A DNA stretch of 64,000 bases from an uncultured Solirubrobacterales bacterium (GTDB lineage Bacteria; Actinomycetota; Thermoleophilia; Solirubrobacterales; JBBDJG01). This document shows positions 3,115-47,199 of the stretch, piece after piece. Where the stretch lies: positions 108,572-172,571 of the forward strand of contig CAVZDP010000001.1 of assembly GCA_963774075.1 (NCBI GenBank), in the 5' to 3' direction. The position numbers and the translations under genes were made by a program. Within the stretch, counting starts at the first letter, position 1; every line of letters starts with the position of its first letter. The notes under the pieces were generated by a model that saw nothing but the letters and a program-made list of their open reading frames with translations, ran no database searches and had not been told where the DNA came from.

Positions 3115-10733
<7,619 letters not shown>

Positions 10734-10745
10734 CCAGGACTAGAC

Positions 10746-10768
10746 GAGGGCGGCGACCAGCCGCCCTC
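10746..10768. terminator. GC-rich hairpin after rpoC (candidate bidirectional terminator between convergent genes)
   Basis: GAGGGCGGC (10746-10754), loop GACCA, GCCGCCCTC (10760-10768): a perfect 9-bp stem with no U-tract. Confidence 0.4.
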
Positions 10769-10815
10769 GCCGCCGTTAATCGGAAGGTCCCGGGTGCTAG
10801 ATGGCACCACAACCT

Positions 10816-11319
10816 TCAGCGAGCAAGTTGGCCTGCCCACGCCAGGAGCTCCTCCACGTGGGCGTCCTCTATCCCGATGTGGCTCGGGGTGCTGACCAGT
10901 AGCGTCGGGCCCGGGCGGGACGCGGCCCAGCCTCGGCAGCTCTCGTCGTGGTTGTCGTCTATCCAGGCCAGGGGACGACTCTGGCCCACGAAGGCGTCGA
11001 TCGCGCCTATCTTCCAGTGGCAGCTCCCGTAGCTGGGGGCGCAGTCGAAGCTCAGGCAGGGAAGCTCGCCGGGGAGGCCGAGTAGGACGGGTAGGTACTC
11101 GTTGGCCGTTTCCTCCCATCCGGTGGCCCAGACGAGCTCGTAGCGCTCAGCGAGAAGCAGCAGCCGCCTGCCGGCATCCCGGGATATGTAGTGCAGCACC
11201 CCGTTGACCGAGTGGAATGCGCCGGCCGGCATCGCGTCTTGTGCGAATCCGAACAGACTTATGACCCCGTCGACATCGACCAGCAATACAGGCTTGTGGC
11301 TTAGGTGTTCCTTAGACAC
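10816..11319 (-). CDS. HAD-superfamily hydrolase-like protein (start uncertain; longest ORF extends to 11439)
   Basis: ..KPVLLVDVDGVISLF.. matches the DxDxV/T HAD motif I near the N-terminus. GTG at 11319 gives MSKEHLSHKPVLLVDVDG. The ORF-track start at 11439 would leave almost no divergent promoter space. Confidence 0.6.
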   Translation of the reverse strand: MSKEHLSHKPVLLVDVDGVISLFGFAQDAMPAGAFHSVNGVLHYISRDAGRRLLLLAERYELVWATGWEETANEYLPVLLGLPGELPCLSFDCAPSYGSCHWKIGAIDAFVGQSRPLAWIDDNHDESCRGWAASRPGPTLLVSTPSHIGIEDAHVEELLAWAGQLAR

Positions 11320-11486
11320 GCCTATCAGGGTATGTTGTCCAAGACGAGCGGCGTCGGGGGACGTTTCCAACCGGTCGTATGTCCAGCATCCGGGGTGTTT
11401 CGTCAACCGCGTAGGGAAAGCCACCGAAAGATCGAACAAGGCGTCGAACCCGCTTGCCTGACCTTCCTAACTTTTCCGTGAACTTG

Positions 11487-12356
11487 ATGACTCCACACTT
11501 CGGGCTGCTGCTCGCCCTCTTCTGTGCGGCGGCCACCAACCTGGCCTTCCTGTGGAAGCACAAGGGCGCCGTGGCCGCTCCCGAGGTCGACATGCGCCAC
11601 CCGGTGAAGAGCGCGGCCGGTCTCTTCCGGTCGAAGTGGTTCGCCGTGGGCTTCTTGGTGGCCGTGGGCGCTTGGGTCCTGCACGTCGGCGCGCTTGCTC
11701 TTGCCCCTATCTCCCTCGTTCAGGCCGTCATCTCGGGCGGGCTCGTGCTGCTTGCCGTGATCGCCGAGCGTTGGTTCGGATTCTCGCTCGGCCGCCGTCA
11801 GTGGTGGGGCGTCGGCCTCACCGCCGCAGGGCTTGCCTTCCTCGGGCTCACGGCTCAGAGCGGCATGAACGGCTCGCACTCGAGCTACTCGATCTCGGCC
11901 ATGATCGCCTTCGAGGGCGGCATGATCGTGATCGGGACGCTGCTGCTGCTCTCTCACAGGGTCGAGCGCGTCCGTCACCGCCACGGCGTCCTGCTCGGAG
12001 CCGCCGCCGGCATCCTCTTCGGCGTCTCCGACGTCGCGATCAAGGCGCTCTCCGGCACCGTGCCGGGCGATCCCATGACGCTCTTCGGGCCGTGGACCCT
12101 CGTCGCCCTGATCGCCTCGGTGGGCGCGTTCTACGCTTCCGCTCGCGGCCTGCAGGTCGGAGAGGGCGTCTCGGTGATCACGCTCACGTCCGTGGCCGCC
12201 AACGCCTCGGCGATCCTCGGCGGCGTGCTCGTCTTCGGCGATCCGCTCGGCAGCGACGCGCTCGCGATCGCCGGCCGCAGCGCAGCCTTCGCCCTCGTGA
12301 TCGCAGCGGCCGCGCTCATGCCGGCGCCGCTTCGCGCAGCGCGCCAGACTGCTTAG
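11487..12356 (+). CDS. Polytopic membrane protein, DMT/EamA-like (about 9-10 TM)
   Basis: ORF 11454..12356. ATG at 11487 precedes the first hydrophobic segment, and hydrophobic helices run throughout. Family assignment is by general resemblance only. Confidence 0.6.
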
Positions 12357-12420
12357 CCGCGAATTTGTGCAGGGAGTCCTCCTCGAGGACGATTCCCGAG
12401 CCTTGCTACCATCGCGCCCC

Positions 12421-12816
12421 GTGCCCAGCATCAATCAGCTCGTCCGCAAGAGCCGCAACCGCCCGCGCAAGAAGGTTTCCACGCCCGGGCTGAAGTCGAG
12501 CCAGGGCGGCAAGCGCCGGCTCGCCGCTCCTCAGCGACGCGGAGTGTGCACGCGGGTGTATACGACGACGCCGAAGAAGCCCAACTCTGCGTTGCGCAAG
12601 GTCGCGCGCGTACGCCTGACGAACGGGATGGAGGTCACCGCCTACATCCCGGGCGAAGGACACAACCTGCAGGAGCACTCGGTGGTGCTCGTCCGCGGGG
12701 GTCGCGTCAAGGACCTGCCGGGCGTGCGCTACAAGGTCGTGCGCGGGACCCTCGACGCCGCCGGCGTCTCGGACCGCAAGAAGGCCCGCTCGCAGTACGG
12801 CGTCAAGGCCAGCTGA
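12421..12816 (+). CDS. rpsL: 30S ribosomal protein S12
   Basis: GTG at 12421 gives [10 protein letters not shown]... (canonical S12 N-terminus), then ..[46 protein letters not shown].. The track start at 12367 is an upstream extension. Confidence 0.96.
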
Positions 12817-12826
12817 CCGCCCAAGG

Positions 12827-13297
12827 ATGCCTCGCCGAGGAGGGATAACACCGCGTCCGCTCGAGCCGGACCACGTGCACAACAGCCGGCTCGTCCAGCA
12901 GGTGATCAACAAGGTGATGCAGGGCGGCAAGAAGTCCGTGGCCGAGAAGATCACCTACGACGCGCTCGACATTCTCGCGAGGAAGACGGGCAAGGACCCG
13001 ATCGAGGCGCTCGAGCACTCGATCAAAGTCCTCACTCCGGTGCTCGAGGTGCGGTCACGCAGGGTCGGAGGTGCCACCTACCAGGTACCGGTCGAGGTGC
13101 CCGCGAGGCGCGCTCGCACGCTCGCGGTGCGCTGGCTCGTCGAGTACGCCCGCAACCGGCGCGAGAAGTCGATGTCCGAGCGGCTCGCAAACGAGCTCGC
13201 CGACGCGTCCGAGCAGCAGGGCGACGCCTACAAGCGCAAGGACGACATCTACCGCATGGCGCAGGCCAACAAGGCCTTCGCCCACTACCGCTGGTAG
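12827..13297 (+). CDS. rpsG: 30S ribosomal protein S7
   Basis: 156 aa, ..[20 protein letters not shown]..; follows rpsL. Confidence 0.97.
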
Positions 13298-13450
13298 CGC
13301 CCGACCCCGGTCGCTATCTCGATCCGGGCATAACCACCCCGTCGGGCGCGCGAGGCGCGCGTCGATCCGCACGAGACTCCGCACGTAACGCTAGGCGATC
13401 GATTTAGGCGCCCTCGACCGGCGGCACTGCCGGCGCCGGCCCAACAGACT

Positions 13451-13530
13451 CGGAATACCAGGCCGGCTCCGCCGGGCACCTCAGTCACGTGAGCCGGCTG
13501 CGCCCCCTTCGGGGGCTACGCCGTCTCTCG
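13451..13530 (-). repeat. Single copy of the 81-nt GTAG-hairpin element (minus orientation)
   Basis: The reverse complement reads CGAGAGA-CGGC-GTAG-CCCCC-gaa-GGGGGC-GCA-GCCG-GCTCACGTGACTGAGGTGC-CCGGC-gga-GCCGG-CCTGGTATTCCG. This is colinear with the units at 47200-47472. Confidence 0.85.
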
Positions 13531-14801
13531 TCATAACCAGATCAGCGGCCAGCGTCTCGAGATCGCGCCCGTGCGGCTCGATCGAAACCAAGGCGAAGCC
13601 GAGCGCGACCAGCACTGAGAAACCGGCCAGGAACAGGAACGCCGGCTCCTGCGCCGCGAGGGTGGCCTCCGGATCCACGAGGTCGCCCGTTCCGGCGATC
13701 AGTGCGACTCCGAGTGGTCCCACGATCCGCCCCACCCCGCTGACGGCCCACGCCAGACCCATCCCGTGTGTCCGCAGGCGCGTCGGAAACACCTCCGGCG
13801 TGTAGGGGGCGAGGTTCGCGAAGCCGCCGTCAACGAAGAAGGCCGCGGCCACGAGCCACACGAGGAAGAGGGGGATGCCGGCGACCTTTGAGGTGCCGCT
13901 GAACGCGGCGGCGGCCAGGAGCGGTGGCGCTCCAAGGCCCATGACGAGCCCGCAGGTGCGGCGGCCCAGGCGCTGGGGTGCGAACGAGAAGAAGAGGCGG
14001 CCACCGAAGGAGCCGAGCGTCACGAAGACGAACAGGAGCGCGGCCTCGTCGGTGTCGATGTCGAGAATCCGCTCGAGGATCGCTGTATCGGCTGCCCTGT
14101 CCCTCGGGACTGGGAGGCGCTTCGAGCGAGAGCTCCTCTTCGTCGCGCTCGAGGAGCCACGCGATCACGCTGCGAGCCTCCTCCAGGCGGCCCTGATCCG
14201 CCAGCCAGCGAGGCGATTCCGGCACGTAGCGCCAAACGAAGATCGCGAGCAGCGCCGGCAGCACTCCGACCCCGAAAAGCGGCCGCCAGCCGATCGCCGG
14301 GATCAACACGGCGGCAGCGATGGCGGCCGCCATGATCCCGATCGGCACCATGGCCGTGGTGACGAAGCCCGCGACCTGTGTGCGCAGGCGCGTGGGAGTG
14401 AACTCGAGCGTGAGAGGCAGCGCTATCACAGCAACGCCCGCCACGCCGGCGCCGACGACGAAGCGAAGGGCGGCCAGGTACCACCAGCCATTGTCGGGCG
14501 CGGCGGCGAGGGCGCCCGTCGCGAGGGAGAAGGTGAGGATGCCGGCGATCAGTGGCCGTCTGCGGCCGAGGTGGTCTCCCGCGCGTCCCCACGCGACGCT
14601 GCCGAAGATCGCGCCGACGCCGGCGCTCAGGAGCACGATCGCGGTCTCGCCGAAGGTCAGGTCCCACTCGTCGGCGATCTCCGGCACCACGAAAGCGATC
14701 AGGAAGAAATCGAACAGGTGCAGGACCGCGCCCACCATCACCGCGATCGCGAGCAGGTAGAAGCGGCGACTCAGCGGCGCTGCGTCGAGCGCCTCGAGCA
14801 T
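13481..14801 (-). pseudogene. MFS transporter, disrupted (frame switch and missing TM7)
   Basis: The N-half (14801 down to ~14100) has 6 TMs and motif A (GRAGDHLGRRR). The C-half (from ~14090 down to 13481) is in another frame and starts at TM8 (..AALLFVFVTLGSFGGRLFFSFAPQRLGRR..). No TM7 is found in any frame, and the last 15 codons plus the stop lie inside the repeat element. Confidence 0.7.
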
Positions 14802-14821
14802 GCCGGGACGGTGTTCTGTGG

Positions 14822-15370
14822 CTATCTCTCCGCTCTCTGCCGGCCGAAGCGCAGCAGCAAGGCGAGCGCCCCGCCACCGACGAGCGTCAGGACCCCGCCC
14901 GCGACCTCCACCCAGAAGCCTGCGGCCGGCTTGGCCTCCGCGATGCGGGCGTCGGTGGTCAGGCCCGAGGATGTCGCGTCGGGCAGATCGCCGAGGAAGG
15001 CAACCGCAAGGCCCGCAACGCCGAGCACCGCGGCAGCCGCGGCAGGTGGCCAGGCGCCGGTGCTGCGGGCGGCGAGCGTGGCCGCGATGGCCGCCGCTCC
15101 CGCGATCAGCAGGGCATAAGAGTGGTTGGCGCCGCCGGTTTGCTCCTGGATCACGACGACTCCGCGCTCGACCCGGTAGACGTCGAGGAACTCCGCCACG
15201 ATGAAGAGCCCGCCTCCGAGGAGCGCGATCGCAGTCGCCACCTCGAGGCGGCGGCCGGCCACCAGGCGGCGACTACCTCTGAGGCCGGAGCGAAGGGCCG
15301 CGCCGGCCCGCTCCCAGAGCGCCTCCCAGCCCTCTGGGGAAGGCGTGCGGGCGTCCCTGGGAGGGCTCAT
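14822..15370 (-). CDS. Hypothetical membrane protein (about 4 TM)
   Basis: ATG at 15370 (MSPPRDARTP...) within ORF 14822..15496. It has hydrophobic segments and ends 20 nt before the MFS start. Confidence 0.5.
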   Translation of the reverse strand: MSPPRDARTPSPEGWEALWERAGAALRSGLRGSRRLVAGRRLEVATAIALLGGGLFIVAEFLDVYRVERGVVVIQEQTGGANHSYALLIAGAAAIAATLAARSTGAWPPAAAAAVLGVAGLAVAFLGDLPDATSSGLTTDARIAEAKPAAGFWVEVAGGVLTLVGGGALALLLRFGRQRAER

Positions 15371-15519
15371 ACCCCTGCTATCATCGCCGAACGTCTCCAG
15401 GGGCGCTTTACAGCTTGCCGGCGCGGAAAAAGCGTGCGGCTGAAGGCCCCTCGAAGGCACTGTCGAACAATGGAGGCCGAGGCACGATAGGACCAATCGG
15501 GCACTGAGCGCTTAGCGGG

Positions 15520-15543
15520 GAGCCCGGTGGGGCTCTTTTTTTT
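15520..15543 (+). terminator. Strong intrinsic terminator with no annotated upstream plus-strand gene
   Basis: GAGCCC (15520-15525), loop GGTG, GGGCTC (15530-15535), then T8 (15536-15543), which is very unusual in this GC-rich sequence. It lies 74 nt upstream of the fusA ATG. Confidence 0.7.
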
Positions 15544-15616
15544 GACTCGCCTCGGACCGCTCACCCTCAACCAAGACTCCTCCCAAGACTCCTCCAACCA
15601 CCTCGGACCAAACCTG

Positions 15617-17716
<2,100 letters not shown>

Positions 17717-17831
17717 GCCCGTGGCCACGTTCCGGCTATATTTCTGCGGTTGCGCTGAGAGCCCCGTCGCGGCCGGGCCCTGGTGCCGCCGATTCAGCTT
17801 CCCTAACACCGAGCGATGAGGAGCGAGGAAC

Positions 17832-19019
<1,188 letters not shown>

Positions 19020-19025
19020 CAAATC

Positions 19026-19047
19026 GAGGCCGCCGCGAGGCGGCTTC
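19026..19047 (+). terminator. Hairpin after tuf (possible partial terminator / start of S10-operon leader)
   Basis: GAGGCCGCC, GCGA tetraloop, GGCGGCTTC: a 9-bp stem with one G-U and no clear U-tract. Confidence 0.3.
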
Positions 19048-19160
19048 GACAGGTAACGGATATGCAAAGAGATACGACGGGGGCGGGGCTCGGTTTGGGC
19101 TTCGCCCTCAGGCGCGAAAGATAGGAACAACGAGAGGCCGCCGTAGGCGATTCACAGGAA

Positions 19161-19481
19161 ATGGCAACACTCCCCCAAAATAAGATCCGCATCCGACTGA
19201 AGGCGTACGACCACGACGCGATCGATCGCGCCGCGGCCGAAATCGTCGAAACCGCCGAGCGCACTGGTGCCTCGGTGTCGGGTCCCGTGCCGCTGCCGAC
19301 TGAGAAGAACGTCTACGTCGTGATCCGCAGCCCGTTCAAGGACAAGGACTCACGCGAGCACTTCGAGATCCGCACGCACAAGCGGCTGATCGACATCCAC
19401 CAGGCGACGCCCAAGACCGTCGACTCGCTTCAGCGTCTCGACCACCTACCGGCGGGCGTCGACATCGAGATCCGGTTGTAG
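19161..19481 (+). CDS. rpsJ: 30S ribosomal protein S10
   Basis: 106 aa, ..[31 protein letters not shown].. Confidence 0.97.
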
Positions 19482-19506
19482 GCGTGACCTCCGAGATCGA
19501 GCATTA

Positions 19507-20133
19507 ATGGCGGGAATCATCGGACGAAAGCTCGGCATGACCCAGATCTTCACCGACGAGGGAGAGCGCATCGCGGTGACGGTGATCCAGGCCGGTCCCT
19601 GTCCGGTCACGGCGGTGCGCGACCCCGATCGCGACGGCTACCGCGCCATCCAGCTCGCCTACGGCGACACGCGCGAGAAGCTCCTATCGAAGCCGAAGCT
19701 CGGGCACCTGAAGAAGGCGGGCGCGCCGCCGCTTCGAAAGCTCGCTGAGTTTCGCGGCGAGGGCGGCGACGACACGAAGATTGGCGACTCGGTGACCGTG
19801 GGCGCCTTCGAGGCCGGTCAACGCATCAAGGTCACCGCTCGCTCTAAGGGCAAGGGGTTCCAGGGAACGATCCGCCGGCACCGCTTCCATCGCGGCCCGG
19901 TCAGCCACGGCTCGCACAACGTCCGCGCGCCCGGCTCGATCGGCGCCAGCGCGACGCCGTCCCGCGTGTTCAAGGGCATAAAGATGCCCGGCCAGATGGG
20001 CAACCGCCAAGTCACGCAACGCGGCCTCGAGCTCGTGGCGATCGACGGCGAGAAGAACCTGCTGCTGGTGAGGGGAGCCGTCCCGGGCCCGACCGGCGGC
20101 CTCGTCGAGGTGCGAAGCGAGGGCGCTCGATGA
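19507..20133 (+). CDS. rplC: 50S ribosomal protein L3
   Basis: 208 aa, MAGIIGRKLGMTQIF..GKGFQG..; operon order. Confidence 0.97.
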   Translation: MAGIIGRKLGMTQIFTDEGERIAVTVIQAGPCPVTAVRDPDRDGYRAIQLAYGDTREKLLSKPKLGHLKKAGAPPLRKLAEFRGEGGDDTKIGDSVTVGAFEAGQRIKVTARSKGKGFQGTIRRHRFHRGPVSHGSHNVRAPGSIGASATPSRVFKGIKMPGQMGNRQVTQRGLELVAIDGEKNLLLVRGAVPGPTGGLVEVRSEGAR

Positions 20134-20771
20134 GCATCACGGCGCCAAAGCTCACCGGCCAGGGAACGGTCGACCTTCCCGAGCGCGTGTTCGGCGAGCG
20201 CTTCCACGAAGCCGTCGTCTGGGAGGCTGCGCGGGCCGAGCAGCTCGCGCGCAGGCGCGGCACGGCCGCGACACGCAGCCGCGGAGAGGTCAGGGGCGGC
20301 GGCGCCAAGCCCTGGCGCCAGAAGGGCACGGGCCGTGCGCGCATCGGCTCGAACCGCGCCCCGCACTGGACGGGCGGGGGAGTGACCTTCGGGCCGAGCC
20401 CGCGCGACTACACGGTGAAGGTGAACCGCAAGGCGCGTCGCCGCGCGCTGCGCGCGGCGCTCAGCCTGCACGCGGAGCGCGGGAGCATCTCCATCGTCGA
20501 CGCCGCGTCCTTCGACGAGCCGTCGACCGCCAAGGCTGCCGACGCTCTCGAGAAGGGCAAGACCGAGCTCCCGGTGCTCGTGCTGCTGGGCGAGGAGGAG
20601 GCGGCCTGCGCGAAGTCCTTCCGCAACATCGCAGGGGTGAGCGTGCTCGCCGCAGAGGACGCCGGCGTGGCGGACCTGCTGGCTGCGGCGACCGTGGTCG
20701 CCTCCGAGGTGGCGCTCGCCGGTCTGGAGCAGGCGACCGCCGACCTCAAGCGCGGGGAGGGTGTGGGCTGA
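20130..20771 (+). CDS. rplD: 50S ribosomal protein L4
   Basis: 213 aa; ATGA overlap with rplC; ..GGGAKPWRQKGTGRAR.GS.R.P.W.GGG.. Confidence 0.96.
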   Translation: MSITAPKLTGQGTVDLPERVFGERFHEAVVWEAARAEQLARRRGTAATRSRGEVRGGGAKPWRQKGTGRARIGSNRAPHWTGGGVTFGPSPRDYTVKVNRKARRRALRAALSLHAERGSISIVDAASFDEPSTAKAADALEKGKTELPVLVLLGEEEAACAKSFRNIAGVSVLAAEDAGVADLLAAATVVASEVALAGLEQATADLKRGEGVG

Positions 20772-21070
20772 TGGACGCTCATCAAATCGTCATCCGCCCG
20801 GTTGTATCCGAGAAGAGCTACGCGCTGATAGCGCAGAACAAGTACACGTTTCGCGTGCACCCGGACGCACACAAGACCCAGATCAGGCAGGCTGTGGAGC
20901 AGATCTTCGAGGTCACCGTCACCGACGTGAGGACGATCAAGCTGCGCCCGAAGCCCAAGCGACGCGGCTGGACGTCGGGCCACACGCGCGGCTGGAAGAA
21001 GGCGATCGTGGAGCTCGCTCCCGGCGATCGCATCGACCTCTTCGAGGGCGCCGCGCTCGAGTCGGAGTAA
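20771..21070 (+). CDS. rplW: 50S ribosomal protein L23
   Basis: 99 aa, ..[15 protein letters not shown]...KTQI..AVE..F.V.V..V.T. Confidence 0.96.
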
Positions 21071-21074
21071 TCCA

Positions 21075-21911
21075 ATGCCCGTCAAGAAACACAAGCCCAC
21101 GTCTCCCGGTCGCCGCTTCGCCACCTGGCTCGAGCGGTCCGAGGTGACCCGCTCCGAGCCGCAGAAGTCCCTCGTAAAGGGCAAGTCCGGGTCCGGCGGA
21201 CGCAACTCGCGCGGGCGGGTGACGAGCCGCCACCGCGGCGGCGGCGCCAAGCGCCGCTATCGCGACGTCGACTTCAAGCGCCGCAAGGATGGCGTGCCGG
21301 CCAAGGTGGCCGCGATCGAGTACGACCCCAACCGCAGCGCTCACATCGCACTGCTGCACTACCTCGACGGCGAGAAGCGCTACATCCTCGCGCCGCAGCG
21401 GCTTCAGGTCGGGATGGTCGTGAGCTCGGGCGAGAAGGCCGAGATTCAGGTCGGCAACACGTTGCCCCTGGCACGCATCCCGACCGGCACGGTCGTGCAC
21501 AACGTCGAGCTCACGCCCGGCCGCGGCGGCCAGCTGGGGCGTTCCGCCGGTGCGTCGATCCAGCTCGTCGCAAAGGAGGGAAGGCACGCGACCCTGCGGC
21601 TGCCCTCCGGGGAGATGCGAATGGTCCCGGCCGAAGCGCGCGCGACGATCGGCGCGATCGGCAACGCCGACCACGAGAACGTCACGATCGGCAAGGCCGG
21701 TCGAAATCGTCACCGCGGGATTCGCCCGCAGACGCGCGGTACCGCGATGAACCCCGTCGACCACCCGCACGGTGGAGGCGAGGGCAAGACGACAGCCGGC
21801 CGCCATCCGGTCACCCCATGGGGAGTGCCCACGCTCGGCTACCGCACGCGCAAGAAGAACAAGCCGTCCGGCCGCTTCATCGTGCGAGGACGACGGAGAG
21901 GGAAGAGGTAA
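21075..21911 (+). CDS. rplB: 50S ribosomal protein L2
   Basis: 278 aa, ..[23 protein letters not shown]..; ..[13 protein letters not shown].. Confidence 0.98.
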
Positions 21912-21914
21912 GGA

Positions 21915-22184
21915 ATGGGTCGTTCCACCAAGAAGGGACCGTGGGCCGAGGAGCGCTTGATGCAACGCATCCAGCGGATGAACGAAGCCGGTGAGAAGCG
22001 AATCATCAACACCTGGTCGCGCGCTTCGACCGTCTTCCCCGAGATGGTTGGCCACACGATCGGGGTTCACGACGGGCGCCGCCACGTGCCCGTCTTCGTC
22101 ACCGAGTCGATGGTCGGTCACAAGCTCGGGGAGTTCGCTCCCACGCGGACCTTCCGCGGACACTCCGGCGGCGACAGGAGGTAG
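21915..22184 (+). CDS. rpsS: 30S ribosomal protein S19
   Basis: 89 aa, [10 protein letters not shown]....[28 protein letters not shown]. Confidence 0.97.
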
Positions 22185-47051: not shown

Positions 47052-47119
47052 CCTCCCTTCGGACCCCAGGGGCTCTGCGATAATCCGGCCCGTCTGACCG
47101 GCTCTGCCGGGCTATTCGT

Positions 47120-47193
47120 CGGGGCGTGGCGCAGTCTGGTAGCGCGCACCGTTCGGGTCGGTGAGGTCCCCGGTTCAAATCCGGGCGCCCCGA
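47120..47193 (+). tRNA. tRNA-Pro (anticodon CGG)
   Basis: Manual cloverleaf: acceptor CGGGGCG/CGCCCCG, D arm GCGC-AGTCTGGTA-GCGC, anticodon arm CACCG-TTCGGGT-CGGTG, variable AGGTC, T arm CCCGG-TTCAAAT-CCGGG, discriminator A. CCA is not encoded. Confidence 0.93.
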
Positions 47194-47199
47194 TATATG

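Follow-up and report, generated by a model that had tools for sequence, protein, structure and literature searches.

Classical amino-acid attenuators (trp, his, thr, ilv and pheA, as well as ilvBNC of C. glutamicum) place a short promoter-proximal ORF ahead of an intrinsic terminator. The leader analysed here, which precedes fusA in a Solirubrobacterales bacterium, has the same layout, and likewise possesses a candidate alternative hairpin just 3′ of the leader stop codon, such that the position of a ribosome could decide whether transcription terminates. Despite this, the two arrangements differ in several respects. The ORF of the fusA leader has six codons rather than 14 or more, and displays no run of codons for a single amino acid, but one rare A-ending codon whose amino acid varies; it has no Shine–Dalgarno (SD) sequence, its target is a translation factor and not a biosynthetic operon, and no 1:2 pairing was found within the leader. 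One defining trait of classical leader-peptide attenuators, namely amino-acid-specific regulatory codons, is absent.

Control by upstream ORFs (uORFs) has been described for the whiB7 leader of mycobacteria, for which uORF and terminator are discussed together (PMC10274678), and for toiL-topAI of E. coli (PMC12121999), whilst uORF-linked conditional termination has been reported genome-wide in M. tuberculosis (bioRxiv 10.1101/2022.06.01.494293). In the whiB7 and toiL-topAI leaders, as well as those of ABCF and HflX genes in Firmicutes, short uORFs sense ribosome function and control read-through into a gene acting on translation, a feature that recalls the reading proposed for the fusA leader. 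The targets in those cases are stress or resistance genes, induced by drugs or starvation, whereas the gene in question here encodes the essential housekeeping factor EF-G; moreover, the fusA leader has no sequence similarity to any of them.

Three further systems show partial likeness. [quoted passage not shown] These share with the present locus both the genomic position and a premature terminator with a possible antiterminator before fusA, but are internal to the str operon, with no promoter of their own and no uORF described. The E. coli S10 leader, which responds to L4, likewise has an intrinsic terminator that serves the feedback control of an operon of translation genes, yet it is protein-mediated and has no uORF, and no protein-binding motif was recognised in the fusA leader. 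Lastly, very short ORFs with a rare AGA-type codon before UAA (AGA minigenes of 3–8 codons) trap peptidyl-tRNA (PMC2490762). Both these and lambda bar (AUG-AUA-UAA) resemble the fusA ORF in having a rare A-ending last codon (AGA, AUA or CGA) followed by UAA or UAG, and minigenes in E. coli hold or drop peptidyl-tRNA in a manner sensitive to tRNA supply; they are, however, toxic or artificial elements acting via tRNA sequestration, and not attenuator sensors. Judged by its sequence, the fusA leader differs from all of the systems compared in its target (EF-G), its six-codon length and its A-ending last codon of variable amino acid. A covariance-model scan, as had been proposed in a first-pass annotation of this DNA, matched no family: at gathering score, Rfam 15 returned only tRNA-Pro for the whole window (the entire 64 kb stretch of DNA analysed) and nothing for 20 related loci, whilst all matches of a permissive search of 15150–15750 had E > 4.

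The fusA locus and its relatives

The window has a GC content of 67.6 %, and constitutes the main translation-gene cluster of a Solirubrobacterales bacterium. Its gene order is rpoB, rpoC, rpsL (12367–12816), rpsG (12827–13297), two minus-strand genes, the leader interval, fusA, tuf, rpsJ and further ribosomal-protein genes, with the minus-strand pair comprising a frameshifted MFS transporter and a small membrane protein. The product of fusA (15617–17716, plus strand) is an EF-G of 699 aa with the complete EF-G set of Pfam domains, and tuf (17832–19019) follows directly downstream in the order fusA-tuf-rpsJ. From this position, within the canonical rpoB-rpoC ... rpsL-rpsG ... fusA-tuf-rpsJ neighbourhood, it follows that fusA is the housekeeping copy, and that the classical str operon is split between rpsG and fusA.

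With regard to the surrounding genes, the MFS transporter (13481–14801, minus strand) is present as two overlapping ORFs of 323 and 180 aa, with a switch of GC3 phase near 14050. Intact homologues occur in L162 (472 aa) and L169 (465 aa), and the split is a frameshift that reflects either a pseudogene or an assembly error. Between rpoC and rpsL, an ORF of 300 aa (11454–12356) shows coding-like GC3 and has no Pfam match. A tRNA/tmRNA scan of the window found tRNA-Pro (47119–47194) alone.

The leader was compared across 28 fusA loci, the window included, which were taken from collections of genomes and metagenomes as well as from contigs encoding close EF-G homologues, and whose EF-G proteins are 72–93 % identical to that of the window. 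Because the relatives are all metagenome-derived and phylogenetically clustered, counts such as 25/25, and the Fisher and Wilcoxon p-values given below, overstate independence. The distance from rpsG to fusA ranges from 0.3 to 2.6 kb and the genes in between differ; in L082 the gap is 314 nt, with no inserted gene, and the leader module lies within it. Irrespective of the upstream genes, the module accompanies fusA in 28/28 loci. In L010 (EF-G 70 % identical) and all more distant bacteria, rpsG directly precedes fusA and nothing comparable is present. In Solirubrobacterales, fusA has thus been uncoupled from rpsL-rpsG.

A -10-like box and a GC hairpin with a T-run are found in all 28 loci, and a mini-ORF lies between them in 25. 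Alignment of gene neighbourhoods and leaders in this way establishes, at the level of predicted elements, the conservation of promoter box, mini-ORF and terminator, together with the absence of an alternative promoter discussed below. Conservation upstream of fusA, which the first-pass annotation had suggested looking for in relatives, is therefore extensive and reaches beyond the hairpin. Three loci (L081, L083 and L088) keep promoter and terminator but not the mini-ORF, indicating that the terminator has some role independent of it. In these short variants (L083:1388–1441, L088:1386–1439 and L081:5–82) the terminator occurs within 20–60 nt of the -10 box.

The terminator

The hairpin GAGCCC-GGTG-GGGCTC with its T8 tract was found exactly where it had been placed by the first-pass annotation, at 15520–15543 on the plus strand. 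Its 5′ arm occupies 15520–15525, the GGTG loop 15526–15529, the second arm 15530–15535 and T8 15536–15543. In a terminator scan of 10000–22000, three G-U pairs, formed between a preceding GGG and the first TTT of the tract, lengthen the stem to 9 pairs (15517–15538), so that the complete element, including the rest of T8, spans 15517–15543. The last T is 73 nt from the fusA ATG (15617). The description of this element as the clearest terminator, with a conspicuous T-run, is borne out, as T8 is the sole run of T or A of at least 6 within the 64 kb window; six terminator-like matches in 10000–22000 are no excess over shuffles, and a real T tract is present only at 15520–15543. Given the confirmed position and the uniqueness of T8, the combination of hairpin and T8 is not a chance feature.

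Variation amongst relatives points in the same direction. Stem pairing is preserved by compensatory changes, and a T-rich tract follows the hairpin in 28/28. At the second position of the stem, most leaders have G-C, whilst the window, L161–L163 and L168 have A-U, and L165 has G-U; the pair outside the terminator core is either C-G or U-A. Hairpin and T8 are thus predicted to be an intrinsic (Rho-independent) terminator.

It had also been stated that no plus-strand gene ends at this point, which is correct for real genes, but overlooks a plus-strand ORF of 312 aa (14552–15490) that stops 30 nt before the hairpin. This ORF was rejected as a gene: its Arg-rich product shadows the membrane gene encoded on the minus strand (14822–15370). 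The codon-position GC profile speaks for the minus frame, a minus-strand gene of 137–190 aa is consistently called at the equivalent place on related contigs, and in L001 a homologue of the membrane protein in the window was detected by tblastn on that minus strand. The label of orphan, in contrast, does not stand, because the terminator closes a unit of ~153 nt that starts at a conserved promoter-like box and forms part of the module found before fusA in every locus.

The promoter-like box and the 5′ part of the leader

The extended -10-like box, TGCTATCAT (TGn + TATCAT; 15376–15384, plus strand), occurs at the same place in 28/28 leaders. Upstream of fusA it has the general form TG[C/G/T]TA[T/A/C]nnT, with TGCTATnnT in the window, and the GC hairpin with its T-run comes about 40–170 nt later. 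No conserved -35 was found among the 28 leaders. Transcription is predicted to start at ~15390–15392.

The reading of the box as the -10 of a local promoter is supported by the presence of the same type before both tuf and tRNA-Pro. For tuf, a box of this type, AGCTATATT / AGCTATATTTTCGCGGTTG-like, is located at 17733–17742 and is conserved in 11/11 fusA-tuf spacers (L161–L171), which suggests that tuf has its own promoter. For tRNA-Pro, CTGCGATAAT (47075–47084) shows the same -10 type ~35 nt upstream of the gene. In a window-wide search for CTGCTATNNT with one mismatch allowed, the frequency was not above that of shuffles, and it is the intergenic matches that are informative. Unlike fusA, tuf has a strong SD, GAGGAG, and in L164 and L167 the tuf leader also has a hairpin with T5–6.

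Only 5 nt separate the start of the divergent membrane gene (ATG 15370, minus strand) from the leader's extended -10 box (15368–15384), and the arrangement GCTCAT-N4–5-CTGCTAT is repeated in L161, L163 and L168. With so short a distance, either the divergent promoters overlap or the mRNA of the membrane gene begins within leader DNA.

Downstream of the predicted start lies a GC-rich 5′ domain of one to three hairpins (15390–15461, plus strand). It folds in every leader, with hairpins that vary in sequence and length among relatives, and its sequence is poorly conserved. Since the complete 175-nt interval does not exceed shuffles in folding stability (z = -0.24), the structure of this domain has no independent support. 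It is followed by the conserved linker GTCGAACA (15462–15469, plus strand), which sits directly before the mini-ORF start and contains no SD. In the window's clade the form YCGAA(C)(A)-ATG is kept, and positions -10 to -1 of the mini-ORF are C/A/U-rich in the 25 leaders that have one.

A conserved six-codon ORF

The sole ATG-initiated ORF of the interval is MEAEAR* (ATG GAG GCC GAG GCA CGA TAG; 15470–15490, plus strand), as had been noted in the first-pass annotation, which nevertheless judged that no plausible ORF was present. That judgement is overturned by the relatives, for MEAEAR* is the best-conserved feature of the interval and is maintained in 25 of the 28 leaders. Each of these has exactly one six-codon ORF at a constant place between -10 box and terminator, for which the chance expectation is ~0.04 per leader. 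Across the 25, the start codon is ATG in 24 and GTG in one, the stop codon is TAG in 16, TAA in eight and TGA in one, and there are zero indels inside the ORF, whilst the lengths of its flanks vary.

Its composition is coding-like. Codons 2–5 have a GC3 of 87 %, against 55 % for GC1 and 53 % for GC2 (Fisher 5e-9, for sequences that are not independent), a pattern that follows the genes of the window, where A and T account for 4.8 and 5.7 % of third positions, respectively. The encoded residues are similar but not identical (M-E/D-[TSA]-x-[TSA]-x), and variation of the synonymous type is seen for Thr at codon 5 (ACA/ACG/ACC) and Ser at codon 3 (AGC/TCN). The pattern ATGGAG-N12-TAG occurs once in the window, compared with 0.11 expected. 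Public annotation does not include the mini-ORF.

The last sense codon, a rare CGA in the window (15485–15487, plus strand), ends in A in 23/25 leaders (AGA, CGA, ACA, ATA, GGA, GCA and AAA) and is never NNT; these A-ending forms are rare codons for six amino acids (R, T, I, K, G and A). In high-GC bacteria, A-ending codons need minor tRNAs with UNN anticodons, whilst T-ending codons are read by major GNN tRNAs. Against this background, the use of NNA and never NNT fits a deliberately slow last codon, although the bias may instead be a nucleotide-level constraint (an A before UAR). As no codon is repeated for any one amino acid within the mini-ORF, and the amino acid of the rare NNA codon varies, an attenuator of this kind, if such it is, would not be amino-acid-sensing. 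At residue 5 (15482–15484 in the window), the penultimate one when the A site holds the stop codon, 21/25 leaders have Thr, Ser or Ala. Thr, Ser and Ala at the penultimate position form the residue class that favours stalling by phenicols and oxazolidinones.

None of the 25 leaders has an SD before the mini-ORF, and a G-rich stretch at -15 to -11, considered as a candidate, proved to be the end of the 5′ hairpin domain. An SD core is found at 30/51 gene starts in the window, whilst fusA has none in any locus. The idea that UAG acts as a rare stop codon was likewise discarded, with TAG being the commonest in the window's genes (25/51). Judging from its frame, start, stop and codon usage, the mini-ORF may be translated.

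The spacer and the need for read-through

A C-rich, G-poor spacer (C 48 %, G 14 %; 15544–15616, plus strand) separates fusA from the terminator. That of the window contains no TA dinucleotide, no -10 and no SD, and a -10 (TAnnnT) is absent from the terminator–fusA spacers of 27/28 loci. Spacer length varies from 19 to 134 nt amongst the 28, the shortest being that of L005. A second promoter after the terminator was considered and rejected, as no -10 follows the TTG with which the T-run ends, and none is possible in the spacer. Thus, fusA is predicted to have no promoter of its own downstream of the terminator.

Since the spacer offers no -10 and can shrink to 19 nt, RNA polymerase has to read through the terminator to arrive at fusA, which argues for a leader and against an independent sRNA gene. 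The first-pass annotation had left the choice between these open, and its leader option is favoured over its sRNA option, since the module always accompanies fusA and has its own -10-like box, with no -10 between terminator and gene.

Several further observations concern this spacer. The motif CAAGACTCCTCC is repeated within 15544–15616, and the composition is typical of Rho loading sites, for which reason a second, Rho-dependent layer of control may exist. The public fusA protein P0001 (729 aa) begins at GTG 15527, within the loop and 3′ arm of the terminator; counted from the ATG that corresponds to 15617, the proteins of all relatives have 699–702 aa, so that the database entry probably starts 30 codons too early. 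In the spacer of L007 (L007:2884–2893), CGAGGACCGG resembles CGAGAGGACCGG of the sarcin-ricin loop of 23S rRNA, a contact site of EF-G; the likeness is not conserved in other leaders and is probably due to chance.

A candidate antiterminator

Upstream of the terminator, the box AUCGGGC (15496–15502, plus strand) is complementary to GCCCGGU at 15522–15528, and could provide the 5′ strand of an antiterminator. The segment with which it would pair, over 7 bp, combines four nt of the terminator's 5′ arm with three of its loop. In most of the 25 leaders with a mini-ORF, the best partner of the terminator 5′ arm is located 26–39 nt after the AUG, and the duplexes of the window's clade comprise 7–9 bp with energies of -13 to -16 kcal/mol. 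Within the window's subclades, the box varies together with the loop. GGUR loops accompany YAC-type boxes and GCGA loops accompany CUCGC boxes: GGUG/GGUA is found with CACUGGGC/UACCGGGC, and GCGA with CUCGC-GGCC in the window's clade. For six leaders, that of the window among them, the box pairs better with its own terminator than with any terminator that has a different loop.

Beyond these subclades the picture is less consistent. Taken family-wide, the comparison of own and foreign terminators gave p = 0.33–0.5, with a positive outcome only in the window's subclades, and no consistent partner for the terminator arm was found in the more distant clade. Duplex energies of 10 leaders, set against dinucleotide shuffles, yielded z-values of about -1 to +1, with the exception of L001 (z = -3.1). 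RNAalifold found no consensus structure in a MAFFT alignment of the 25 leaders, a null result that arises because terminator loops of 3–5 nt shift the arms out of register. In folds upstream of the terminator, no consistent structure was seen for an anti-antiterminator in which the mini-ORF pairs with the box.

A folding model was used to place a ribosome at different points of the mini-ORF. With the ribosome on the stop codon, releasing the terminator arm becomes cheaper: the mean cost drops from 6.9 to 5.3 kcal/mol, and that of the window from 9.6 to 6.2 kcal/mol, although any mask nearer to the terminator removes potential partners, which explains part of the effect. Ribosomes positioned at the AUG, or having codon 5 in the P site, brought about no such change (Wilcoxon p = 0.0007 and 0.002). 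The ribosome footprint reaches the box only partly in many leaders. Taken together, these results make an antiterminator plausible in the window and its close relatives, and leave it unproven across the whole family; the pairing itself, and the direction in which it would exert control, are inferred from complementarity and folding.

Proposed mechanism and its alternatives

We lean, with somewhat more confidence than doubt, towards the view that the element is a ribosome-mediated transcription attenuator in the cis-acting 5′ leader of housekeeping fusA. In such a mechanism, the extended -10 promoter (15376–15384) would start fusA transcription, with the leader RNA beginning at ~15390, and a ribosome would translate the six codons of 15470–15490. 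Once on the stop codon, the ribosome would cover the box (15496–15502), so that the terminator could form and transcription would stop at T8, releasing a leader RNA of ~153 nt. Were the ribosome absent or held up earlier, the box could pair with 15522–15528, the terminator hairpin would be blocked and the polymerase would enter fusA. The point of hold-up would be the rare A-ending last codon, which calls for delivery of a minor tRNA by EF-Tu and then translocation driven by EF-G; in this way, slow translation would result in more synthesis of EF-G. The opposite logic may instead apply, with a long-parked ribosome favouring termination and control being exerted through the pool of free ribosomes.

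Among the alternatives, we consider it unlikely that the leader is simply constitutive, with the terminator being a fixed and partly leaky brake, or a 5′/3′ stability element, on a very strong promoter, and with a mini-ORF that controls nothing and at most loads ribosomes or protects from Rho. Such a leader would accommodate L081, L083 and L088, in which promoter and terminator persist with no mini-ORF, as well as the lack of family-wide significance for the antiterminator and of any consensus alternative structure, and the likeness of the C-rich, G-poor spacer to a Rho loading site makes protection by translation conceivable. What it leaves unexplained is why frame, length, start, stop and A-ending codon of the mini-ORF are held constant in 25 otherwise diverged leaders, and why, in the window's subclades, box and terminator loop change in step. 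The same coding traits tell against a stand-alone, trans-acting sRNA of ~153 nt (~15390–15543), in which ATGGAG...ATAG would be a seed or protein-binding motif: GC by codon position, the use of three stop codons and GTG in place of ATG all fit an ORF better than a seed. Whilst the layout suits an sRNA (its own -10 box, a 5′ hairpin domain, a conserved and less-structured middle and a strong terminator), the ORF has no SD, and the short RNA would be abundant if the terminator were efficient, the element is always immediately before a fusA that has no promoter of its own (with a spacer down to 19 nt and no -10), and no Rfam family was matched in the window or the 20 related loci. We therefore regard an independent sRNA as decidedly improbable, although a cis-acting leader may yield a terminated product that also acts in trans.

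Very unlikely, in our estimation, is attenuation mediated by a protein, whereby a ribosomal protein or translation factor would bind the conserved blocks and promote or block termination, in the manner of L4 with NusA at the E. coli S10 leader, or of S7 as has been proposed for leaders of rpsL/fusA. Autogenous control is a common mode for ribosomal-protein operons, and the locus is indeed inside a ribosomal-protein gene cluster; the premature terminators predicted for streptococcal rpsG-fusA have been discussed in connection with S7 control (PMC2965389). Contrary to such a mode, no Rfam ribosomal-protein leader was matched, the 5′ domain is unconserved in both sequence and shape, and the features that are conserved behave like an ORF.

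If the ribosome-mediated attenuator is indeed the correct reading, there is still the matter of which signal it senses, and this we infer from the mini-ORF. A tentative and rather doubtful proposal is that the leader is a sensor of elongation capacity, in which the slow last codon sets the pace of the ribosome relative to RNA polymerase. If delivery by EF-Tu or translocation by EF-G were limiting, or poisoned by soil antibiotics that target these factors, the ribosome would be late at the stop codon, the box would block the terminator and more EF-G would be made. Should this be true, it would represent direct feedback of translation speed on a core elongation factor.

Implications for the control of EF-G

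In the usual view, the level of EF-G tracks that of ribosomes because fusA belongs to the str operon together with rpsL and rpsG, and the gene is not known to be under dedicated control. Within this order of actinobacteria, fusA has been cut loose, and appears to have acquired its own promoter, six-codon ORF and terminator. If the mini-ORF gates the terminator, the leader would be a compact case in which the speed of translation, or the supply of ribosomes, feeds back on the synthesis of an elongation factor, and would show that a six-codon ORF with one slow codon suffices for attenuation.
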